A DNA stretch of 64,000 nucleotides from Candidatus Latescibacterota bacterium (lineage in GTDB: Bacteria; Latescibacterota; UBA2968; UBA8231), in contig OZ241867.1 in NCBI GenBank assembly GCA_965203175.1, positions 2,304,001 through 2,368,000 of the forward strand. Direction: 5' to 3'. Positions 13,832 through 22,136 of this stretch are shown here, in pieces (position 1 is the first letter of the stretch; each line of letters starts with the position of its first letter). The translations under genes and the position numbers were made by a program. The notes beneath the pieces are model-generated. The model was not told the DNA's origin and did no database searches. It was given only the letters and a program-made list of their open reading frames with translations.

Positions 13832-15600
13832 TATCCTGGGTACTCCACTTCTACTACGCGTTCGTCTAACTCGCGTTGCAACTCCTCCACTTGTTCTACT
13901 ATGTACTCTACCGCCTGCTCTACTGGCGTTTCACGCCGCTCTTTTTCGCGCCGCAGTTTGACCTCGACAATCCCCTGCTGCAAACCGCGATCCCCCACCG
14001 TCACCCGCACCGGTATTCCTATCAGGTCGGCGTCGTTGAACTTGACCCCTGGGTTTTCTCGGCGGTCGTCGAGGAGGACTTCAATACCGCGCGCTGCGAG
14101 GCTGTCGTAGAGTTGCGCGCCCACGTCTTGTGCTGCGCCTGCGCCCTTGGCGAGGAGGACGATGTGGACCTGGTAGGGCGCGACGGCAATGGGCCACACC
14201 AAGCCGTCTTCGTCGTGGTACTCTTCGGCGATACAGGCCAGCAGCCGCCCTACGCCGATTCCGTAGGAACCCATGACGACTGGCTGTGCCTTGCCCTCGG
14301 CGTCGAGGAAATCACCGCCCAGTGCCTCGGTGAATTTGGTGCCGAGTTGGAAGATGTTGCCCACTTCCACTCCGCGCGATTCGCGCAGCGCCGCGCCGCA
14401 GTCAGGGCAGCAATCGCCTTGTCGGGCGGCGGCGATGTCGGCAACCACGTTGGCCGTGTAGTCGCGGCCGTGGTTTACATTGGCGAGGTGGTAGCCCGGC
14501 TCGTTGGCACCGGCTACTAGATTGGGCGAGGACGCCACGGAGTCATCGACGACGACTAGGGCTCCCTCGACGCCGATGGGCGATCCATAGCCCGGCTCGA
14601 CGCCGACGCCGCGTATTTCCTCGTCCCGCGCCGGCCACATTTCGAGTGCGCCGACCGCGTTGGCCAGCTTGGTCTCGTTGACTTCCATGTCGCCGCGTAT
14701 GACTGCCAGTACAAACGCATCCTCCTTGTCCCGACCGTCGCCGACCGTGGCCATCAGGAAGAGGGCTTTGGCAGTCTTATTCGCGGGGATGTCGAGCAGC
14801 GCAGTCAGTTCCTCGATGGTCGTGGTGTTGGGCGTGGCGATTTTCTCGGGCGCGGCGGGCTCTTCTTCCGGGTTGGCCTGTTTGGCGAAGGTGGCGATTT
14901 GGCGGTTGGCCGAGTACTCGCAGCCGTCGCACAACAGCAGGGTGTCTTCGCCAATCGGCGTCAGGTACATGTATTCGTGGGCTAGCTCGCCGCCCATCAT
15001 CCCAGTGTCTGAGCGCACCGCGAGGACGTCGAGGCCGCAGCGATGGAAGATGTTGAAATACTGCTGGTAATGGGCGCGGTATTGCTTTTCGAGGCCCTCC
15101 CAGTCGGCGTCGAGGCTGTAGGAATCCTTCATGGTGAACTCGCGCACCCGGATAAGGCCCGAGCGGGGGCGGGGATCGTCGCGCCACTTGGTCTGGATAT
15201 GATAGACTAACTGGGGCAGTTGCTTGTAGGATTTGATCTCGCGGCTGACTAGGTCGGCTACGACTTCCTCATGGGTCATGGCCAGCACCATGTCGCGCTC
15301 GTTTTTGTCTTGGAAGCGCCCCATCTCCGTGCCGACTGCGTACCAACGCCCCGTCTGCTGCCAGAGTTCGGCCGGATGCACCACCGGCATGGTGATTTCC
15401 TGGCCGCCGATGGCGTCTATCTCTTGGCGGATAATGTCCTCGATCTTGCGCATCGACCGCTGCGCTAGGGGCAAATAGCTGAAGATGCCGCTGGCCAGTG
15501 GGCGGATAAAGCCAGCCCGCAACAAGAGCTGGTGGCTGACCACCTCCACGTCGGCGGTGACGTCGCGCAAGGTCTGGCTGAAAAGCCGACTCATTCGCAT
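13831..15600 (-). CDS. proS: Proline--tRNA ligase
   Basis: MRMSRLFSQTLR, SHQLLLRAG, THEEV, RVREFTMKDSYS, EVGNIFQLG, GSYGIGVGR. Confidence 0.98.
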   Translation of the reverse strand: MRMSRLFSQTLRDVTADVEVVSHQLLLRAGFIRPLASGIFSYLPLAQRSMRKIEDIIRQEIDAIGGQEITMPVVHPAELWQQTGRWYAVGTEMGRFQDKNERDMVLAMTHEEVVADLVSREIKSYKQLPQLVYHIQTKWRDDPRPRSGLIRVREFTMKDSYSLDADWEGLEKQYRAHYQQYFNIFHRCGLDVLAVRSDTGMMGGELAHEYMYLTPIGEDTLLLCDGCEYSANRQIATFAKQANPEEEPAAPEKIATPNTTTIEELTALLDIPANKTAKALFLMATVGDGRDKEDAFVLAVIRGDMEVNETKLANAVGALEMWPARDEEIRGVGVEPGYGSPIGVEGALVVVDDSVASSPNLVAGANEPGYHLANVNHGRDYTANVVADIAAARQGDCCPDCGAALRESRGVEVGNIFQLGTKFTEALGGDFLDAEGKAQPVVMGSYGIGVGRLLACIAEEYHDEDGLVWPIAVAPYQVHIVLLAKGAGAAQDVGAQLYDSLAARGIEVLLDDRRENPGVKFNDADLIGIPVRVTVGDRGLQQGIVEVKLRREKERRETPVEQAVEYIVEQVEELQRELDERVVEVEYPG

Positions 15601-17780: not shown

Positions 17781-18491
17781 TCACGTTTTTTGGCGAGCCA
17801 CCGCGCGCATCGCCCGATACATGCACGACAGGGACACCAGCACCCAAATCAAGGCGATCAGATACGCCAGATAGGGCACCTGCAATGGATCTATTCCCCA
17901 ATAGGCCGACAATATCCCGGCGTCCGTCCGCTCAGGAAAATACCACAGGTCGGTGCGGAAGTCGTAGAGACTGTACAGGCACAGCATCACCCCCATCCAC
18001 ACCGCGCCGATGCTCGCCATCCGCCGCGACTTGCAGGCCATGATGCACAGGATCAGTCCGCCGCCGATCCCCAACACAAAATCAACGCTCCCCTCTTCCA
18101 GCGGCGTGTAGATCAGAGTCATCCCCGCGCAGGCCGCGCCAATGCACAGCAACACCAAACGCTGTGCCTGCGGATAAAGCGAGGTGTACATCAACAACGC
18201 CCCCCACAGCGCCGACCCTACGTAGCCTGCCGCGCTAATCAGCGGGAAGAAACCCCCCTTGGTCAGGGTGTGTCCGGACTCGTCCCAATGGGTGCGGATT
18301 TCGAGGACTTCTCCGCCGGTGATCAGGGCCGCTGCCGCGTGATTGACCTCGTGCACCAGCACCACGAAGAAGCGGAACGGCTTGATCAACGCGGTGTCCC
18401 AAAAGGTCAGTGCTAGCCCTGTGCAAAGGAGATAGTAGCGAAATTGCCAGAAGACCTCGGCGATGTAGCGGATGCGGCGGAACATGGCCAC
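17781..18491 (-). CDS. M50B family membrane metallopeptidase
   Basis: VHEVNHAAAA, AGYVGS, TDA; multiple TM segments. Confidence 0.88.
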   Translation of the reverse strand: MAMFRRIRYIAEVFWQFRYYLLCTGLALTFWDTALIKPFRFFVVLVHEVNHAAAALITGGEVLEIRTHWDESGHTLTKGGFFPLISAAGYVGSALWGALLMYTSLYPQAQRLVLLCIGAACAGMTLIYTPLEEGSVDFVLGIGGGLILCIMACKSRRMASIGAVWMGVMLCLYSLYDFRTDLWYFPERTDAGILSAYWGIDPLQVPYLAYLIALIWVLVSLSCMYRAMRAVARQKT

Positions 18492-20404
18492 TAGTCACTG
18501 ATCTCAGCGCTGATCAGCGCGACGACCTCGGCTAGCGGGAGCGGGTCGAGCTGTTCGCCGGATCGCTGCCGGATTGCCACCTTGCCCTCTTCGATTTCGC
18601 GGTCCCCGGCGATCAGCATGTAGGGCACCTTCTGCGTCTGCGCTTGGCGGATGCGCTTGTTGAGGGTCTCGCTGGCCGCGTCGAGTTCGGCGCGGATTCC
18701 AGCGGCGAGAAGCTGCTGGTGGAGTTGGCTCCCGTACTCGGCGTGGCGCTCGGCAATGGGCAAAACCACCGCTTGCACGGGTGCCAACCACACTGGGAAC
18801 GCGCCGGCGTAGTGTTCGATCAAGAAGCCGATAAAGCGCTCGTGCGTGCCCAGCGGCGCGCGGTGGATGCAGATGGGCGTCTCCTCTTCGCCCGCCGCAT
18901 TGGTGTACGTCAAGCCGAAGCGGCCGGGCACGGCAAAATCGACTTGATTGGTGGCGATTGTAAACTGCCGCCCGATGGCGCTCCAAACTTCGACGTCGAT
19001 CTTGGGGCCGTAGAAGGCGGCCTCGTCGGGCACCTCTTCGTAGTTGATCCCGCCCCGCGCCATGGCGCCGCGCACCATGTCCTCGGTGCGGAGCCACCGC
19101 TCGGAGTCATCGACGTACTTGGCCCCTAGGCCCGATGGTGCGTGGGTGCTCAAGCGCATCAGGTAATTCTCTAGGCCGAACAGCTCGAAATAGCGCAGGT
19201 ACATCTGACAGACGGCGAGGAATTCCTCCTCGAATTGGTCGAGCGTGCAGTATATGTGCGCGTCGTTCATCTGCAACGAGCGCACCCGCATCAAGCCGAA
19301 CAGTTCGCCCGATTGCTCGTAGCGATAGCACGTGCCATACTCAGCCAAACGCAAAGGTAAGTCGCGGTACGAGCGCGGGGAGGCGGCAAAAATTTTGTGG
19401 TGGTGGGGGCAGTTCATGGGCTTGAGGTAGTACTTGACCCCCTCCAACTCCATGGGTGGGAACATGGACTCGGCGTAGTACGGCAAGTGGCCGCTGCGCA
19501 GATATATGGACTCCTTGCAGATGTGCGGCGTGCGCACGCGCTGATAGCCGGCCTCTTGCTCGGTCTTGCGGGCCAAGTCCTCTAACTCGTCGATGAGCAC
19601 CGCTCCCTTGGGAAGCCACAGGGGCAATCCCGGTCCCACTTCGTCGTCAAAGGTGAACAGTTCCAGTTGTTTGCCCAGCGTGCGGTGGTCGCGCTTTTTG
19701 GCCTCTTTCAGCATTGCCAGATGGTGGTCGAGGGCCTCGCGAGTGGCAAAGGCCGTGCCGTAGATCCGCTGCAACATCTTGCGGCTCTCGTCGCCGCGCC
19801 AGTAGGCTCCAGCTACGCTCAGGAGCTTGAAGTGTTTGACTTGTCCGGTGCCGAGCATGTGCGGCCCCCGGCACAGGTCGACGAACTCGCCGTCTTTGTA
19901 AAAGGATAAGGTCTGATCTTCTTCCAAGTCGGCGAGGATTTCCTGTTTGTAGGGAGCGTTGGCGACCATCTCCTCCGCCTCTTGGCGCGCAACATCGATT
20001 CGCTCGAATTTGTGGTTTTGCTTGACGACCCGCTTCATCTCGCGCTCGATCTTTTGCAAGTCTTCGGGCGTAAAAGGCTCGGCCACGTCGAAGTCGTAGT
20101 AGAAGCCGTCGTCAATGGCTGGGCCGATGGCCAGTTGTGCGTCCGGGAAGAGGCGCAGCACGGCCTGCGCCAACACGTGCGACATGCTGTGGCGGTAGAT
20201 CCAGGCGGCCTCGTCTGCATCCCAGGCAATGAGTTCGACTTCCGCCTCGCTGGTGAGGTGGGTGTGGAAGTCCACGTGCTCGTCGCCGGCGCGGGCGGCA
20301 ATGTATTGCTTTAACAATTCCTTGTTCTCTTGGACGAGGATCTCCTTGAGCGTACCCTCGCCGGGGTATTCGATGGCTTGTCCTTGGGGGACTTTGATCA
20401 GCAT
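18491..20404 (-). CDS. thrS: Threonine--tRNA ligase
   Basis: RHSMSHVLA, DLCRGPH, RDHRTLG, KPMNCPHH, AAFYGPKID, IHRAPLGTHERF; AGGAG RBS. Confidence 0.98.
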   Translation of the reverse strand: MLIKVPQGQAIEYPGEGTLKEILVQENKELLKQYIAARAGDEHVDFHTHLTSEAEVELIAWDADEAAWIYRHSMSHVLAQAVLRLFPDAQLAIGPAIDDGFYYDFDVAEPFTPEDLQKIEREMKRVVKQNHKFERIDVARQEAEEMVANAPYKQEILADLEEDQTLSFYKDGEFVDLCRGPHMLGTGQVKHFKLLSVAGAYWRGDESRKMLQRIYGTAFATREALDHHLAMLKEAKKRDHRTLGKQLELFTFDDEVGPGLPLWLPKGAVLIDELEDLARKTEQEAGYQRVRTPHICKESIYLRSGHLPYYAESMFPPMELEGVKYYLKPMNCPHHHKIFAASPRSYRDLPLRLAEYGTCYRYEQSGELFGLMRVRSLQMNDAHIYCTLDQFEEEFLAVCQMYLRYFELFGLENYLMRLSTHAPSGLGAKYVDDSERWLRTEDMVRGAMARGGINYEEVPDEAAFYGPKIDVEVWSAIGRQFTIATNQVDFAVPGRFGLTYTNAAGEEETPICIHRAPLGTHERFIGFLIEHYAGAFPVWLAPVQAVVLPIAERHAEYGSQLHQQLLAAGIRAELDAASETLNKRIRQAQTQKVPYMLIAGDREIEEGKVAIRQRSGEQLDPLPLAEVVALISAEISD

Positions 20405-20422
20405 GACGCGCTCCTTGGCATG

Positions 20423-20456
20423 AAAAACCCCGCTGTCATTGTAGCCGACAGCGGGG
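20423..20456 (-). terminator. Intrinsic terminator of thrS attenuator
   Basis: CCCCGCTGTC-9 nt loop-GACAGCGGGG-TTTTT, about 20 nt before the thrS start. Confidence 0.85.
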
Positions 20457-20486
20457 AGGGGTTGCAAAATAAACTTTAGTCCGTCG

Positions 20487-20603
20487 CTATCCGGCGCACA
20501 TGGTCGTAGTCGTAGTCGTAGTGGTGGTAGTGGTAGCCGTCGGCCCCGACGGGAGACCGCTGAGGCACGGTGCGGAAGCGACTGTAAGCATAGCAGAAAT
20601 CAT
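20487..20603 (-). CDS. Thr-rich leader peptide of thrS (38 aa)
   Basis: MISAMLTVASAPCLSGLPSGPTATTTTTTTTTTTMCAG*; 11 consecutive Thr codons using ACC, ACT and ACG. Confidence 0.85.
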   Translation of the reverse strand: MISAMLTVASAPCLSGLPSGPTATTTTTTTTTTTMCAG

Positions 20604-20610
20604 GAGGTAT

Positions 20611-20639
20611 AAAATATCGGCAGAGTGTCGATTGTGCAA
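20611..20639 (-). promoter_or_regulatory. Promoter of leader/thrS transcript
   Basis: TTGCAC-17-TATTTT followed 7 nt later by the leader ATG (leaderless arrangement). Confidence 0.55.
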
Positions 20640-20645
20640 GCGCCT

Positions 20646-22136
20646 TCAGGTCAGTTCGTAGTGGGTGCGGTCGGGCAAGGGCACTGGCTGGCCATCCTCA
20701 GTGTTGATGCTCCAGTCGGCTAGCCGCAGGCGCATGGCGGCGAGGGCGTCGCGGTGTTGTTCCTCGTCGATCACATTGACCAACTCGTTTGGATCGGCGA
20801 CGAGGTCGTAGAGTTCGTCGCGGTCTCCCATGGGGTCGTGGACGTACTTCCATTCGCGGGTGCGGACCATCTTGCAGCGGCCAGCCGCCTCGCGCCACTG
20901 CAAGCTGTCGATCAGGGTTTTGCGGCCCCAAGGTTGAGGCAGTTTTTCCAAGTCGGCCATGGTAAAGAGCGGCCCTCCGCAGCCGTATTCGGAAAAGGTC
21001 GCGTCCCGGGGCGCGGCGTCGGTTGCGGTGGGCAGCGGCGTTCCGTGCATTGAGCGCGGCTGCTCTAACTCTTGCAAGTGCAACAGCGTCGGCACTACGT
21101 CGATCAGGTTGGCCATGCTTTGATCGCGCACTCCGGTGGCGACCTGTCCGGGCCAAGAGACGATCAGCGGGACGCGCGTCAGGCTGTCGTAGAAGACCCC
21201 GCCCTTGCACTGCATAGCGTGTTCGCCCATGAAGTCGCCGTGGTCCGAACAAAAGACCACAATCGTCTGTTCCCGCAGCCCTAGTTCGTCGAGCTTGTCG
21301 AGGATCTGACCGAGCGCGTCGTCAATAAAGCGCACCATGCCAAAGTACGAGGCCATGACGCCGTAGAGGTCTTCGGGCGGGTCGCGGCGCACTCCCAGCA
21401 TTTGATAGAGCACTCGGTTGCGCTCGGGCGCGCGCTCGTCGTCGAATTCGTCGTCGCGCCAAGGGGGCAGGTCAATGGCCGAGGGTGGGAACAGGTCCGC
21501 GTACTCGGCTGGGCACAGCCACGGCTCGTGTGGATCGGGGAAGGAAACCCACAGGGCAAAGGGCTGGTCTTGGTGCTTTTCGATAAAGCGCGTCGTCTGC
21601 CCGGCGATCAGGCCGGTGGAGTGATCCTCCAACGGCAGTTCGGAGGTACCGTAGCTAAAGCGGGGGTTCTGGTGGGCGAGTTGGCGATGCTCGGCGGCGA
21701 CCTTGCGGCGACCTTCTTCTGGCCGGAACCAGTCCATGCCCCGCGTCTGTGGCCCCTCGTTGCGCCCGCCGTGAGTAAAGGCGTTCCACACGTCGAAGAG
21801 CGCCAAATCCTCCTCCCGCTGGAAGCAGTGGTTTTTGCCGATCAGGCCGGTGGCGTAGCCAGCCTCTTTCCAGAGTTGCCAGGCGTGCGTGGCACCGGCG
21901 GGCATCAAGGTCTGGTTGCGCCGGCCGCCGTGCGAGTGGGGAAATTGCGAGGTCCAAAATGAGATGCGCGCTGGCACGCAGAGCGGGTGCGGGGTGATTG
22001 CGTTTTCAAAGAGCACGCCGTCGTCGGCTAGGCGTTCCATGGACGGGGTTTGGCAGAAGGTGTTGCCGTAGAGATGGCTGGCCGTGGCGCGCTGTTGGTC
22101 GGTCATTATGACGAGGATGTTGGGACGGTCGGTCAT
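20646..22136 (-). CDS. Sulfatase (Cys/FGly type)
   Basis: RPNILVIMTDQ, LCVPAR, GKNH, PHEP, SDHG, ELYDL. Confidence 0.93.
   Translation of the reverse strand: MTDRPNILVIMTDQQRATASHLYGNTFCQTPSMERLADDGVLFENAITPHPLCVPARISFWTSQFPHSHGGRRNQTLMPAGATHAWQLWKEAGYATGLIGKNHCFQREEDLALFDVWNAFTHGGRNEGPQTRGMDWFRPEEGRRKVAAEHRQLAHQNPRFSYGTSELPLEDHSTGLIAGQTTRFIEKHQDQPFALWVSFPDPHEPWLCPAEYADLFPPSAIDLPPWRDDEFDDERAPERNRVLYQMLGVRRDPPEDLYGVMASYFGMVRFIDDALGQILDKLDELGLREQTIVVFCSDHGDFMGEHAMQCKGGVFYDSLTRVPLIVSWPGQVATGVRDQSMANLIDVVPTLLHLQELEQPRSMHGTPLPTATDAAPRDATFSEYGCGGPLFTMADLEKLPQPWGRKTLIDSLQWREAAGRCKMVRTREWKYVHDPMGDRDELYDLVADPNELVNVIDEEQHRDALAAMRLRLADWSINTEDGQPVPLPDRTHYELT

Follow-up and report, generated by a model that had tools for sequence, protein, structure and literature searches.

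In the 64,000-nucleotide window analysed here (Candidatus Latescibacterota bacterium, contig OZ241867.1, positions 2,304,001 to 2,368,000), the gene thrS, which encodes threonyl-tRNA synthetase (ThrRS), is very probably controlled by a ribosome-mediated transcription attenuator of the leader-peptide type, with threonine codons as the regulatory codons. As is typical of this class, the cognate codons are clustered in a short open reading frame (ORF) upstream of the gene, an intrinsic terminator lies between the ORF and thrS, and relatives retain the regulatory codons in a peptide that otherwise drifts. An attenuator sensing Thr-tRNA had been proposed from the letters of the window alone (the original prediction), and the Thr frame, the terminator, the partner segment spanning the leader stop and the promoter spacing were all found as it had anticipated. 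Parts of the model that we infer are where the transcript starts, that the ORF is translated, that the two structures compete kinetically and that the switch responds to Thr-tRNA.

In the proposed mechanism, transcription would start at or next to the leader AUG, and the polymerase would be followed closely by a ribosome translating the 38-codon ORF. With ample Thr-tRNA(Thr), this ribosome would pass the 11 Thr codons and reach the UAG, where its footprint would cover GCCGGAUAGCGACGG; the 5' arm of the terminator would then be free for the 3' arm, and transcription would end at the T-tract before thrS. A shortage of charged tRNA(Thr) would make the ribosome stall early in the Thr run, leaving the stop-spanning segment uncovered; this segment would pair with the emerging 5' arm of the terminator, the terminator would not form, and thrS would be transcribed. 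If this is true, more threonyl-tRNA synthetase would be made when charged threonine-tRNA is short.

The features on which the model is built are listed in Table 1. Translation of the leader ORF from the ATG at 20603 gives MISAMLTVASAPCLSGLPSGPTATTTTTTTTTTTMCAG followed by the stop, in agreement with the 38-codon minus-strand ORF described earlier. The Thr run is indeed made up of 11 codons in three synonymous forms (ACC, ACT and ACG), and it extends to 20540-20502 if the preceding ACG GCT are included; it had been placed just before the stop, from which it is separated by the four codons of MCAG (TAG at 20489-20487). A run of at least eight consecutive ACN triplets, counted in any frame and on both strands, occurs a single time in the 6.58-Mb genome, namely in the thrS leader, and 13 other runs have 6 or 7 triplets. 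The genome-wide share of Thr is 5.15% of codons (1224 long ORFs), and ACT represents 36% of the Thr codons in the run, compared with 14% in the genome. The ACN run is covered by a period-6 array (Tandem Repeats Finder, TRF), and the number of Thr codons, which varies between relatives, suggests slippage in the ACN repeat.

Table 1. Features of the putative thrS attenuator, in order of transcription (positions of the window; Thr, threonine; MFE, minimum free energy).
Feature	Position	Strand	Details	Basis
-35 hexamer, leader promoter	20639-20634	minus	TTGCAC	sequence reading; relatives' alignment
-10 hexamer	20616-20611	minus	TATTTT, then 7 nt, then leader ATG (20603)	sequence reading
Leader ORF	20603..20487	minus	38 codons and TAG stop; kept in 31/31 genus sequences	translation
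Possible protector helix strand	20582-20573	minus	GUCGCUUCCG, with stop-spanning segment; weak	MFE fold
Second segment complementary to terminator 5' arm and loop	20547-20535	minus	GGGGCCGACGGCU, directly before Thr run	
Thr-codon run (regulatory codons)	20534-20502	minus	11 consecutive codons	codon reading
Antiterminator 5' strand (proposed)	20495-20481	minus	GCCGGAUAGCGACGG, spanning leader stop	preferred partner of terminator 5' arm in pre-terminator transcripts
Intrinsic terminator	20456-20423	minus	5' arm 20456-20447, loop 20446-20438, 3' arm 20437-20428, T-tract 20427-20423	
thrS Shine-Dalgarno sequence	20416-20411	minus	AAGGAG, 7 nt past T-tract, outside hairpin	
thrS (regulated gene)	18491..20404	minus	threonine--tRNA ligase, 637 aa; ATG 20404-20402	Pfam and NCBIfam

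The terminator begins 33 bases after the leader stop, which itself lies 82 nt before the thrS ATG. Its stem-loop (20456..20428) consists of 11 pairs, 8 of them G-C, with a loop of 7 and a hairpin energy of -20.9 kcal/mol; TTTTT follows, to 20423, and then the Shine-Dalgarno (SD) sequence AAGGAG of thrS, so that a terminator with a U-tract stands directly before the ribosome-binding site, as predicted. The thrS product is identified by the Pfam domains tRNA-synt_2b, HGTP_anticodon and tRNA_SAD and by NCBIfam TIGR00418 (687 bits, cut-off 384). In a structure alignment of natural stretches (A1, made with MAFFT) from 20 sequences of 8 genera, the organism's own genus excluded, 97.5% of the terminator cells are paired and three pairs (12 cells) have changed on both sides. 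Shuffled alignments reached the observed pairing, cell count or covariation score in 0/500 cases, and slid partners gave 30-50% pairing; covariation of the stem, proposed at the outset as a check, is therefore present.

Conservation within the genus was followed in the thrS upstream regions of 31 genomes (L001-L023 and L143-L150), 26 of which form a main clade with leader ORFs that are all distinct. Each of the 31 has an ORF in which a 10-codon window holds 4-10 Thr codons and whose stop lies 29-38 nt before the terminator. In the Thr span of the main-clade ORFs, 228 of 266 codons are ACN (ACT 82, ACG 71, ACC 70, ACA 5), the others being mostly Ala, Pro or Ser. Since a change at the free third base would alter the residue in the other two frames, the kept feature is the Thr codon and not the nucleotide repeat as such, and the conservation of the Thr frame, on which the original prediction depended, is thus accompanied by free synonymous change. 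In the first 21 codons the variable columns number 10, 11 and 14 by codon position, with no third-position bias; the rest of the peptide is therefore without visible protein-level selection, as expected for a leader. The leader unit stays with thrS in L014, L018 and L019 despite a different upstream gene, the upstream neighbour in the window being a sulfatase gene (Pfam Sulfatase) at 22202-20646 on the same strand.

The comparison was extended to the family (76 genomes in 18 genera) with 43 further thrS 5' regions, for a total of 74 sequences. By our own criteria a terminator precedes thrS in 68/74 of them and in 16/18 genera, and none was found in L165, L180, L181, L185, L186 and L187. The 5' arm of the terminator, CCCRCUGYCG, is conserved across the 16 genera in sequence as well as in pairing. 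Among the 37 terminator-bearing sequences from outside the genus, an ORF ending near the terminator has at least 4 Thr per 10 codons in 20 cases and at least 5 in 15 (genera g11, g16, g19, g21 and g22), the expectations from 100 dinucleotide shuffles being 2.7 +/- 1.6 and 0.3 +/- 0.5 (maximum 2), respectively. Thr is also the top four-codon box, with 15 sequences at the level of at least 5 (Arg 11, Ala 7) and 7 at the level of at least 6 (Arg 4). The leader peptides themselves are unrelated between genera, for example ..RRETTTTPGTTTPVTGT.., ..LSLTTTPATT.. and MAFPTTTTTTRTT..; the leaders of other genera appear rebuilt, with a different peptide that is still Thr-rich and the same terminator arm.

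Further observations were made on the leaders of these relatives. In several genera the leader ends Gly-stop with a common nucleotide motif, CCGG(R)(R)UAR (20487-20495 in the window; L153-L193), while the peptides are otherwise unrelated; its forms are GCCGGAUAG in g1, CCGGGAUAA or CCGGGGUAA in g22, CCGGUUUAA in g16 and CCGGGAUAG in g7, and the motif may reflect an RNA-level constraint or a slow-termination context. In the sister family f2 (L025-L030) a conserved promoter precedes thrS; the leader is ~130 nt long, its terminator abuts the thrS ATG, and no Thr-rich ORF, SD or Rfam match was found in this leader. A metagenome-assembled genome (MAG) of the Verrucomicrobiota carries a short ORF, MVMAEFTMTTTTGWR followed by a stop, ~150 nt before its thrS match (L068:90-140), which looks like an independent Thr leader.

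As for the alternative structure, the original prediction had the segment across the leader stop pair with the 5' arm and loop of the terminator. Drawn by hand, GCCGGAUAGCG (20495-20485) and CGCUGUCGGC (20452-20444) form 10 pairs with one bulge, and folding recovers the pairing. The sequence GGATAG CGACGGACTAA around the stop is nearly invariant in the main clade; a homologous CGAYGG(U)GG segment adjoins the stop in other genera, in which stop-adjacent segments such as CGACGGUGG, GGCGGUGGG and CGAUGGUGG are complementary to the 5' arm of the terminator. In alignment A1, where two misaligned g21 rows were left unchanged in the antiterminator columns, 89.9% of the antiterminator cells are paired across the 8 genera, compared with 28-73% when slid, and one pair is compensatory (A-U to G-C, in g16, 3 cells). 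When the terminator 5' arm was tested for duplexes with the upstream 96 nt, the best partner was significant in some genera, being reached by few of the 200 shuffles in g8 (1), g11 (0), g18 (0) and g21 (0 and 23), and in g16 by 0-7 in four of six sequences and by 20 and 29 in the other two; in others it was not significant (200 shuffles each). In L012-L016 and L019 of the organism's own genus, the stop-spanning segment is the best partner of the arm.

The effect of a ribosome was modelled by masking its positions in transcripts of 51 sequences that run from the predicted 5' end and stop before the 3' arm of the terminator. Upstream pairing of the 5' arm has a median probability of 0.86 when no ribosome is present; a ribosome on the first, a middle or the last Thr codon gives 0.85, 0.88 and 0.74, respectively, and one at the stop gives 0.66. 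In 39/51 sequences the probability is higher by >0.1 in the first-Thr state than in the stop state, and the reverse occurs in 1/51. The median difference between stalling and stop is 0.29-0.61 in g8, g16, g21 and g22; in g11 and g19 it is close to zero. The preferred partner of the 5' arm lies at -3..+8 relative to the stop in the main clade, which is GCCGGAUAGCG, and at -18..-11 in other genera; in both positions it would be covered by a terminating ribosome and left free by one stalled early in the Thr cluster, which accords with the masking originally foreseen for a ribosome at the stop. As the antiterminator forms in silico without a ribosome, the default state may be ON, unlike in the trp attenuator. 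Of the two alternative folds, then, the antiterminator is favoured as long as the 3' arm does not exist, while the full-length transcript always ends in the terminator at equilibrium. Taken together, the proposed helix stands as the preferred partner of the 5' arm, its covariation is weak, and we lean slightly towards its being the exact antiterminator.

Two further segments of the leader bear on this pairing. A second copy of the CGACGG core, GGGGCCGACGGCU, lies before the Thr run and pairs with the arm and loop of the terminator more strongly than the stop-spanning segment; its duplex (-20 to -22 kcal/mol) is reached by 1-7/200 shuffles and is often the strongest partner in the genus, but the segment is weakened in L012-L016 and L019 and so is not universal. 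The segment GUCGCUUCCG could form a protector helix with the stop region (20582-20573); one of its pairs falls on a freely varying third codon position, the fold without a ribosome prefers the antiterminator, and the protector helix is not convincing. Folded at equilibrium, the entire leader shows no greater stability than shuffled sequences (z = -1.0).

Several of the results weigh against attenuation by a translating ribosome. Outside the Thr run, the substitution patterns of the first 21 codons show no sign of translation, and a Thr-blind 'longest ORF' rule chose the Thr frame in 19/30 genus sequences; this rule, which often chose the +2 frame and read Y/H/D, was dropped as an ORF definition. 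The covariation of the antiterminator is weak, its three main measures being reached by 38, 45 and 64 of 500 shuffles, and the stop-spanning duplex alone is no better than shuffles in L012-L016 and L019 (15-140/200). In equilibrium folding of the full transcript, the terminator forms with P of 0.96 or more whichever ribosome state is assumed; like a classical attenuator, the system would therefore have to decide by kinetics. In the organism's own genus the median difference between stalling and stop is a modest 0.19, because in silico the second complementary segment before the Thr run can replace the masked one; the mask model takes no account of the bulk of the ribosome, by which such backup pairing across a bound ribosome is probably prevented. 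Outside the genus, 17/37 terminator-bearing sequences have <4 Thr in any 10-codon window (among them sequences of g7, g10, g12, g13, g17, g18 and g20), and, relatives not being independent, a count by genus at the level of at least 5 puts Thr (5 genera) on a similar footing to Ala (5) and Arg (7).

The start of the leader transcript was predicted from promoter spacing. The -35/-10 pair expected before the leader ATG is present, with a spacer of 17 nt between TTGCAC and TATTTT. Main-clade sequences have TTGCAC (18/26) or TTGACA (8/26) as -35 hexamer, a spacer of 17 or 18 nt, and TATTTT (19/26) or TATCTT (7/26) as -10 hexamer; the -10 box lies 7 nt before the ATG in 25/26 sequences and 6 nt in 1/26, and the bases between them are variable, without SD and not purine-rich. 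In L017 and L145 the first four codons are missing, and the next ATG stands at the preserved spacing. The fixed distance, together with the variable SD-free bases, fits a transcription start on the A of the AUG or beside it, and the leader mRNA is on balance probably leaderless. The attenuator might also work with an mRNA that starts further upstream or arises by read-through from the sulfatase gene, the AUG being used without SD, which we regard as rather unlikely. This would agree with the -35 hexamer of the window, which matches 3/6 positions, so that the promoter is unlisted by a consensus promoter scan, and with the divergent genus members L021-L023, L149 and L150, in which a 5' untranslated region (UTR) of ~40 nt with a GGAGG SD precedes a different, still Thr-rich peptide. 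It fits poorly with the distance of 6 or 7 nt kept in 26/26 main-clade sequences, with the perfect TTGACA of eight relatives and with the SDs used elsewhere in the organism (AAGGAG in thrS, GGAG in the tyrS leader described below).

A second promoter-like sequence, TTGCAA-18-TACAAT (20438-20467, minus), overlaps the terminator, its -10 hexamer falling within the loop; one such site was found where 0.2 would be expected. It is probably due to chance, since the loop and TTGCAA vary among relatives; if real, it could supply basal transcription of thrS.

The other synthetase genes of the genome were searched by a residue-run and terminator scan and by a Pfam-based census of 21 synthetase-family genes. 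The scan returned 153 matches, mostly noise, of which thrS, tyrS and aspS_2 alone survived inspection. Before tyrS (TIGR00234, 394 bits) a Tyr leader, MMQNLRAERYYYYYTSLHRQG and a stop, is preceded by the SD GGAG and followed by the terminator GCCCCTGATTACAGGGGC and T8 (L111:346-490 = G000:C1:5271245-5271389, plus strand); at least 2 adjacent Tyr codons are found in the tyrS leader of 22/23 genus loci, the exception being L133, and the leader is absent in sister family f2. Before the second aspS (NF001750, 809 bits) stand tandem Asn/Asp leader-terminator units, first MITRQNDRTQNNNPLAPLRVF and then MTFRYNHTAYAFANNNDNNPAIRARWRWP, each with its stop (L112:1820-2150, minus = G000:C1:2041819-2042149). 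This aspS_2 paralog occurs in 17/25 genus genomes searched, with an Asn/Asp-rich leader in 16/16 of those with enough upstream sequence. The genome also holds AspRS_1 without such leader units and an AsnRS-like gene, and aspS_2 may encode a regulated non-discriminating AspRS.

The remaining 18 synthetase genes have no leader-terminator unit under the same criteria. Three apparent terminators were set aside, namely that of a LysRS-like gene, which belongs to the upstream clpX-like gene, a hairpin at AspRS_1, which lies inside the AspRS_1 coding sequence, and that before pheS, which belongs to the preceding rplT-like gene and is accompanied by no Phe ORF. A ProRS-like gene with a 618-aa open frame lies 3 kb downstream of thrS (14218-15315, minus; G000:C1:2318218-2319315), and neither a Pro-codon leader nor a terminator was seen before its ORF. 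Cognate-codon leaders before tyrS and aspS_2 as well as thrS point to the codons being the signal.

This bears on the possibility that the switch is real and is set by ThrRS binding the leader, in the manner of the E. coli thrS operator, or by uncharged tRNA, the Thr ORF being incidental. Such a switch would explain why the 5' arm of the terminator is conserved in sequence as well as in pairing in 16 genera, why 17/37 terminator-bearing sequences of other genera do without a Thr-rich ORF, and why f2 has a conserved leader and terminator without a Thr ORF. It would leave unexplained the Thr enrichment far above that of shuffles, the free third bases of ACN and the cognate-codon leaders of tyrS and aspS_2. 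No RNA of a suitable kind came to light either. A search of 20300-20750 with all 4227 Rfam families (cmscan, E up to 10) gave neither a Thr_leader nor a T-box match, and its sole hits, Atu_C7 (17.6 bits) and DUF2693-FD (15.1 bits), fell well short of their gathering scores; 44 candidates scored for T-box (RF00230) in the whole genome gave 0 matches, and no Rfam match was obtained at the tyrS and aspS loci. An operator of the E. coli type was looked for as well by direct reading of the sequence, and no tRNA(Thr) mimic was found at the SD: the sole nearby hairpin is the terminator, which ends 11 nt before the SD and leaves it outside, and its loop GCUACAA contains no GGU, CGU or UGU triplet, that is, no Thr anticodon. 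Control of thrS by ThrRS or tRNA binding is held to be very unlikely.

Leader-peptide attenuation may also be set against an action of the upstream ORF on thrS translation, through coupling, re-initiation or mRNA stability, with no premature termination. The ORF is conserved, as this would require, and some Streptomyces leaders are described as lacking clear terminators in the available text of PMC8079986; a G+C-rich hairpin with a T-tract nevertheless follows the ORF in 68/74 family sequences and covaries, the leader stop is 82 nt away from the thrS ATG, and thrS has its own SD, outside the hairpin, all of which makes a purely translational effect highly improbable. Least credible is that the ACN run is a slippage-prone microsatellite or the gene of a small poly-Thr protein, without regulation, and that the hairpin ends the same-strand sulfatase gene: the period-6 array and the varying Thr-codon number would suit it, but the leader has its own conserved promoter and persists beside other upstream genes (L014, L018, L019), Thr-rich ORFs are retained in other genera where the DNA is not repetitive, and the genome's sole run of this kind sits before thrS.

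Contigs assembled from RNA libraries (Logan) that hold relatives of the organism, 90-99% alike, bridge the leader, the terminator and thrS in two records (X1 record 7, 20259-20510; X6 record 25, 18491-20621). Assembled contigs show neither ends nor strand, and the libraries may contain DNA, so these records are neutral for the attenuator model. In X12 the summed contig depth over 20435-20596 is ~240-470 per bin (up to ~1900 at individual positions), compared with ~30 over thrS and 0 over 20273-20434. This peak on the ACN repeat is probably due to repeat cross-matching, and it may also reflect abundant attenuated leader RNA.

Beyond thrS, it can be suggested tentatively, at somewhat less than even chances, that this T-box-free family uses cognate-codon leaders as a general synthetase sensor, present for thrS in a large part of the family, for tyrS throughout the genus and for aspS_2 as tandem leaders. 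In that case aspS_2 would be a starvation-induced enzyme feeding the indirect Asn-tRNA route, the leaderless thrS leader would make the first ribosome bound at the 5' end the sensor, and slippage in the ACN repeat would tune sensitivity between species. A conserved thrS attenuator with sister elements on tyrS and aspS would show that ribosome-mediated attenuation of synthetases extends well beyond Proteobacteria, Actinobacteria and bacilli, and the thrS leader would be a small sensor of Thr-tRNA amenable to in vitro assays. How such a sensor evolves could be studied in the family series, a natural data set in which one terminator arm is combined with rebuilt peptides and with Thr-codon numbers that differ.

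Leader-peptide attenuation is a textbook mechanism, and the thrS leader is of this classical kind: the lineage is new, the kind is known. To our knowledge, nothing is known of gene regulation in the Latescibacterota, which are uncultured. A close parallel in design is E. coli pheST with its leader pheM, where, as here, a cognate-codon-rich leader ORF and an intrinsic terminator precede a synthetase gene and the ribosome senses the charged tRNA made by the regulated enzyme. The two differ in amino acid, gene and phylum and have no sequence similarity; in addition, the leader described here is probably leaderless and has no clear 1:2 protector helix. The attenuator thrL of the E. coli thr operon (Rfam Thr_leader, RF00506) contains Ile codons as well and acts on the genes thrABC, which are biosynthetic. 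It shares with the thrS leader the run of Thr codons as regulatory codons and the alternative between terminator and antiterminator, whereas the target is here a synthetase and the region has no Thr_leader match. The thrS gene itself is controlled in E. coli by a translational operator sensing the ThrRS protein and in Firmicutes by a T-box sensing uncharged tRNA. In both, as in the present case, thrS receives feedback from the state of the Thr-tRNA system, but those systems act by RNA mimicry or binding, while the sensor proposed here is the translating ribosome.

Attenuation of synthetase genes by leader peptides has been described in gamma-proteobacteria (pheST) and in Streptomyces (trpS and leuS) (PMC1262725, the available text of which does not mention thrS), and in bacilli for hisS paralogs (PMC2965389). 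The accessible part of the latter mentions autoregulation of ThrRS, does not contain the word 'thrS', and gives Proteobacteria and Actinobacteria as the only groups from which leader peptides were known in 2010 (PMC2965389). Whether a thrS attenuator of this kind had been reported was left open by the original prediction: a literature search, with subscription journals outside its coverage, showed, among the matches listed, no thrS leader besides that of Streptomyces lividans and nothing on attenuation in Latescibacterota. As far as the available text goes, a leaderless 'thrL' has been proposed before S. lividans thrS as a Thr-dependent attenuator, with a peptide of 18 codons, two of them Thr, and with no clear rho-independent terminator seen by the authors (PMC8079986), and leaderless leuL and trpL leaders precede leuS and trpS in Streptomyces (PMC8079986; PMC1262725). 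The two systems thus have in common a leaderless short ORF upstream of thrS (a predicted one here) and several synthetase genes with cognate leaders; what sets the Latescibacterota leader apart is its 11 consecutive Thr codons, its covarying canonical terminator and its conservation across a family of another phylum.

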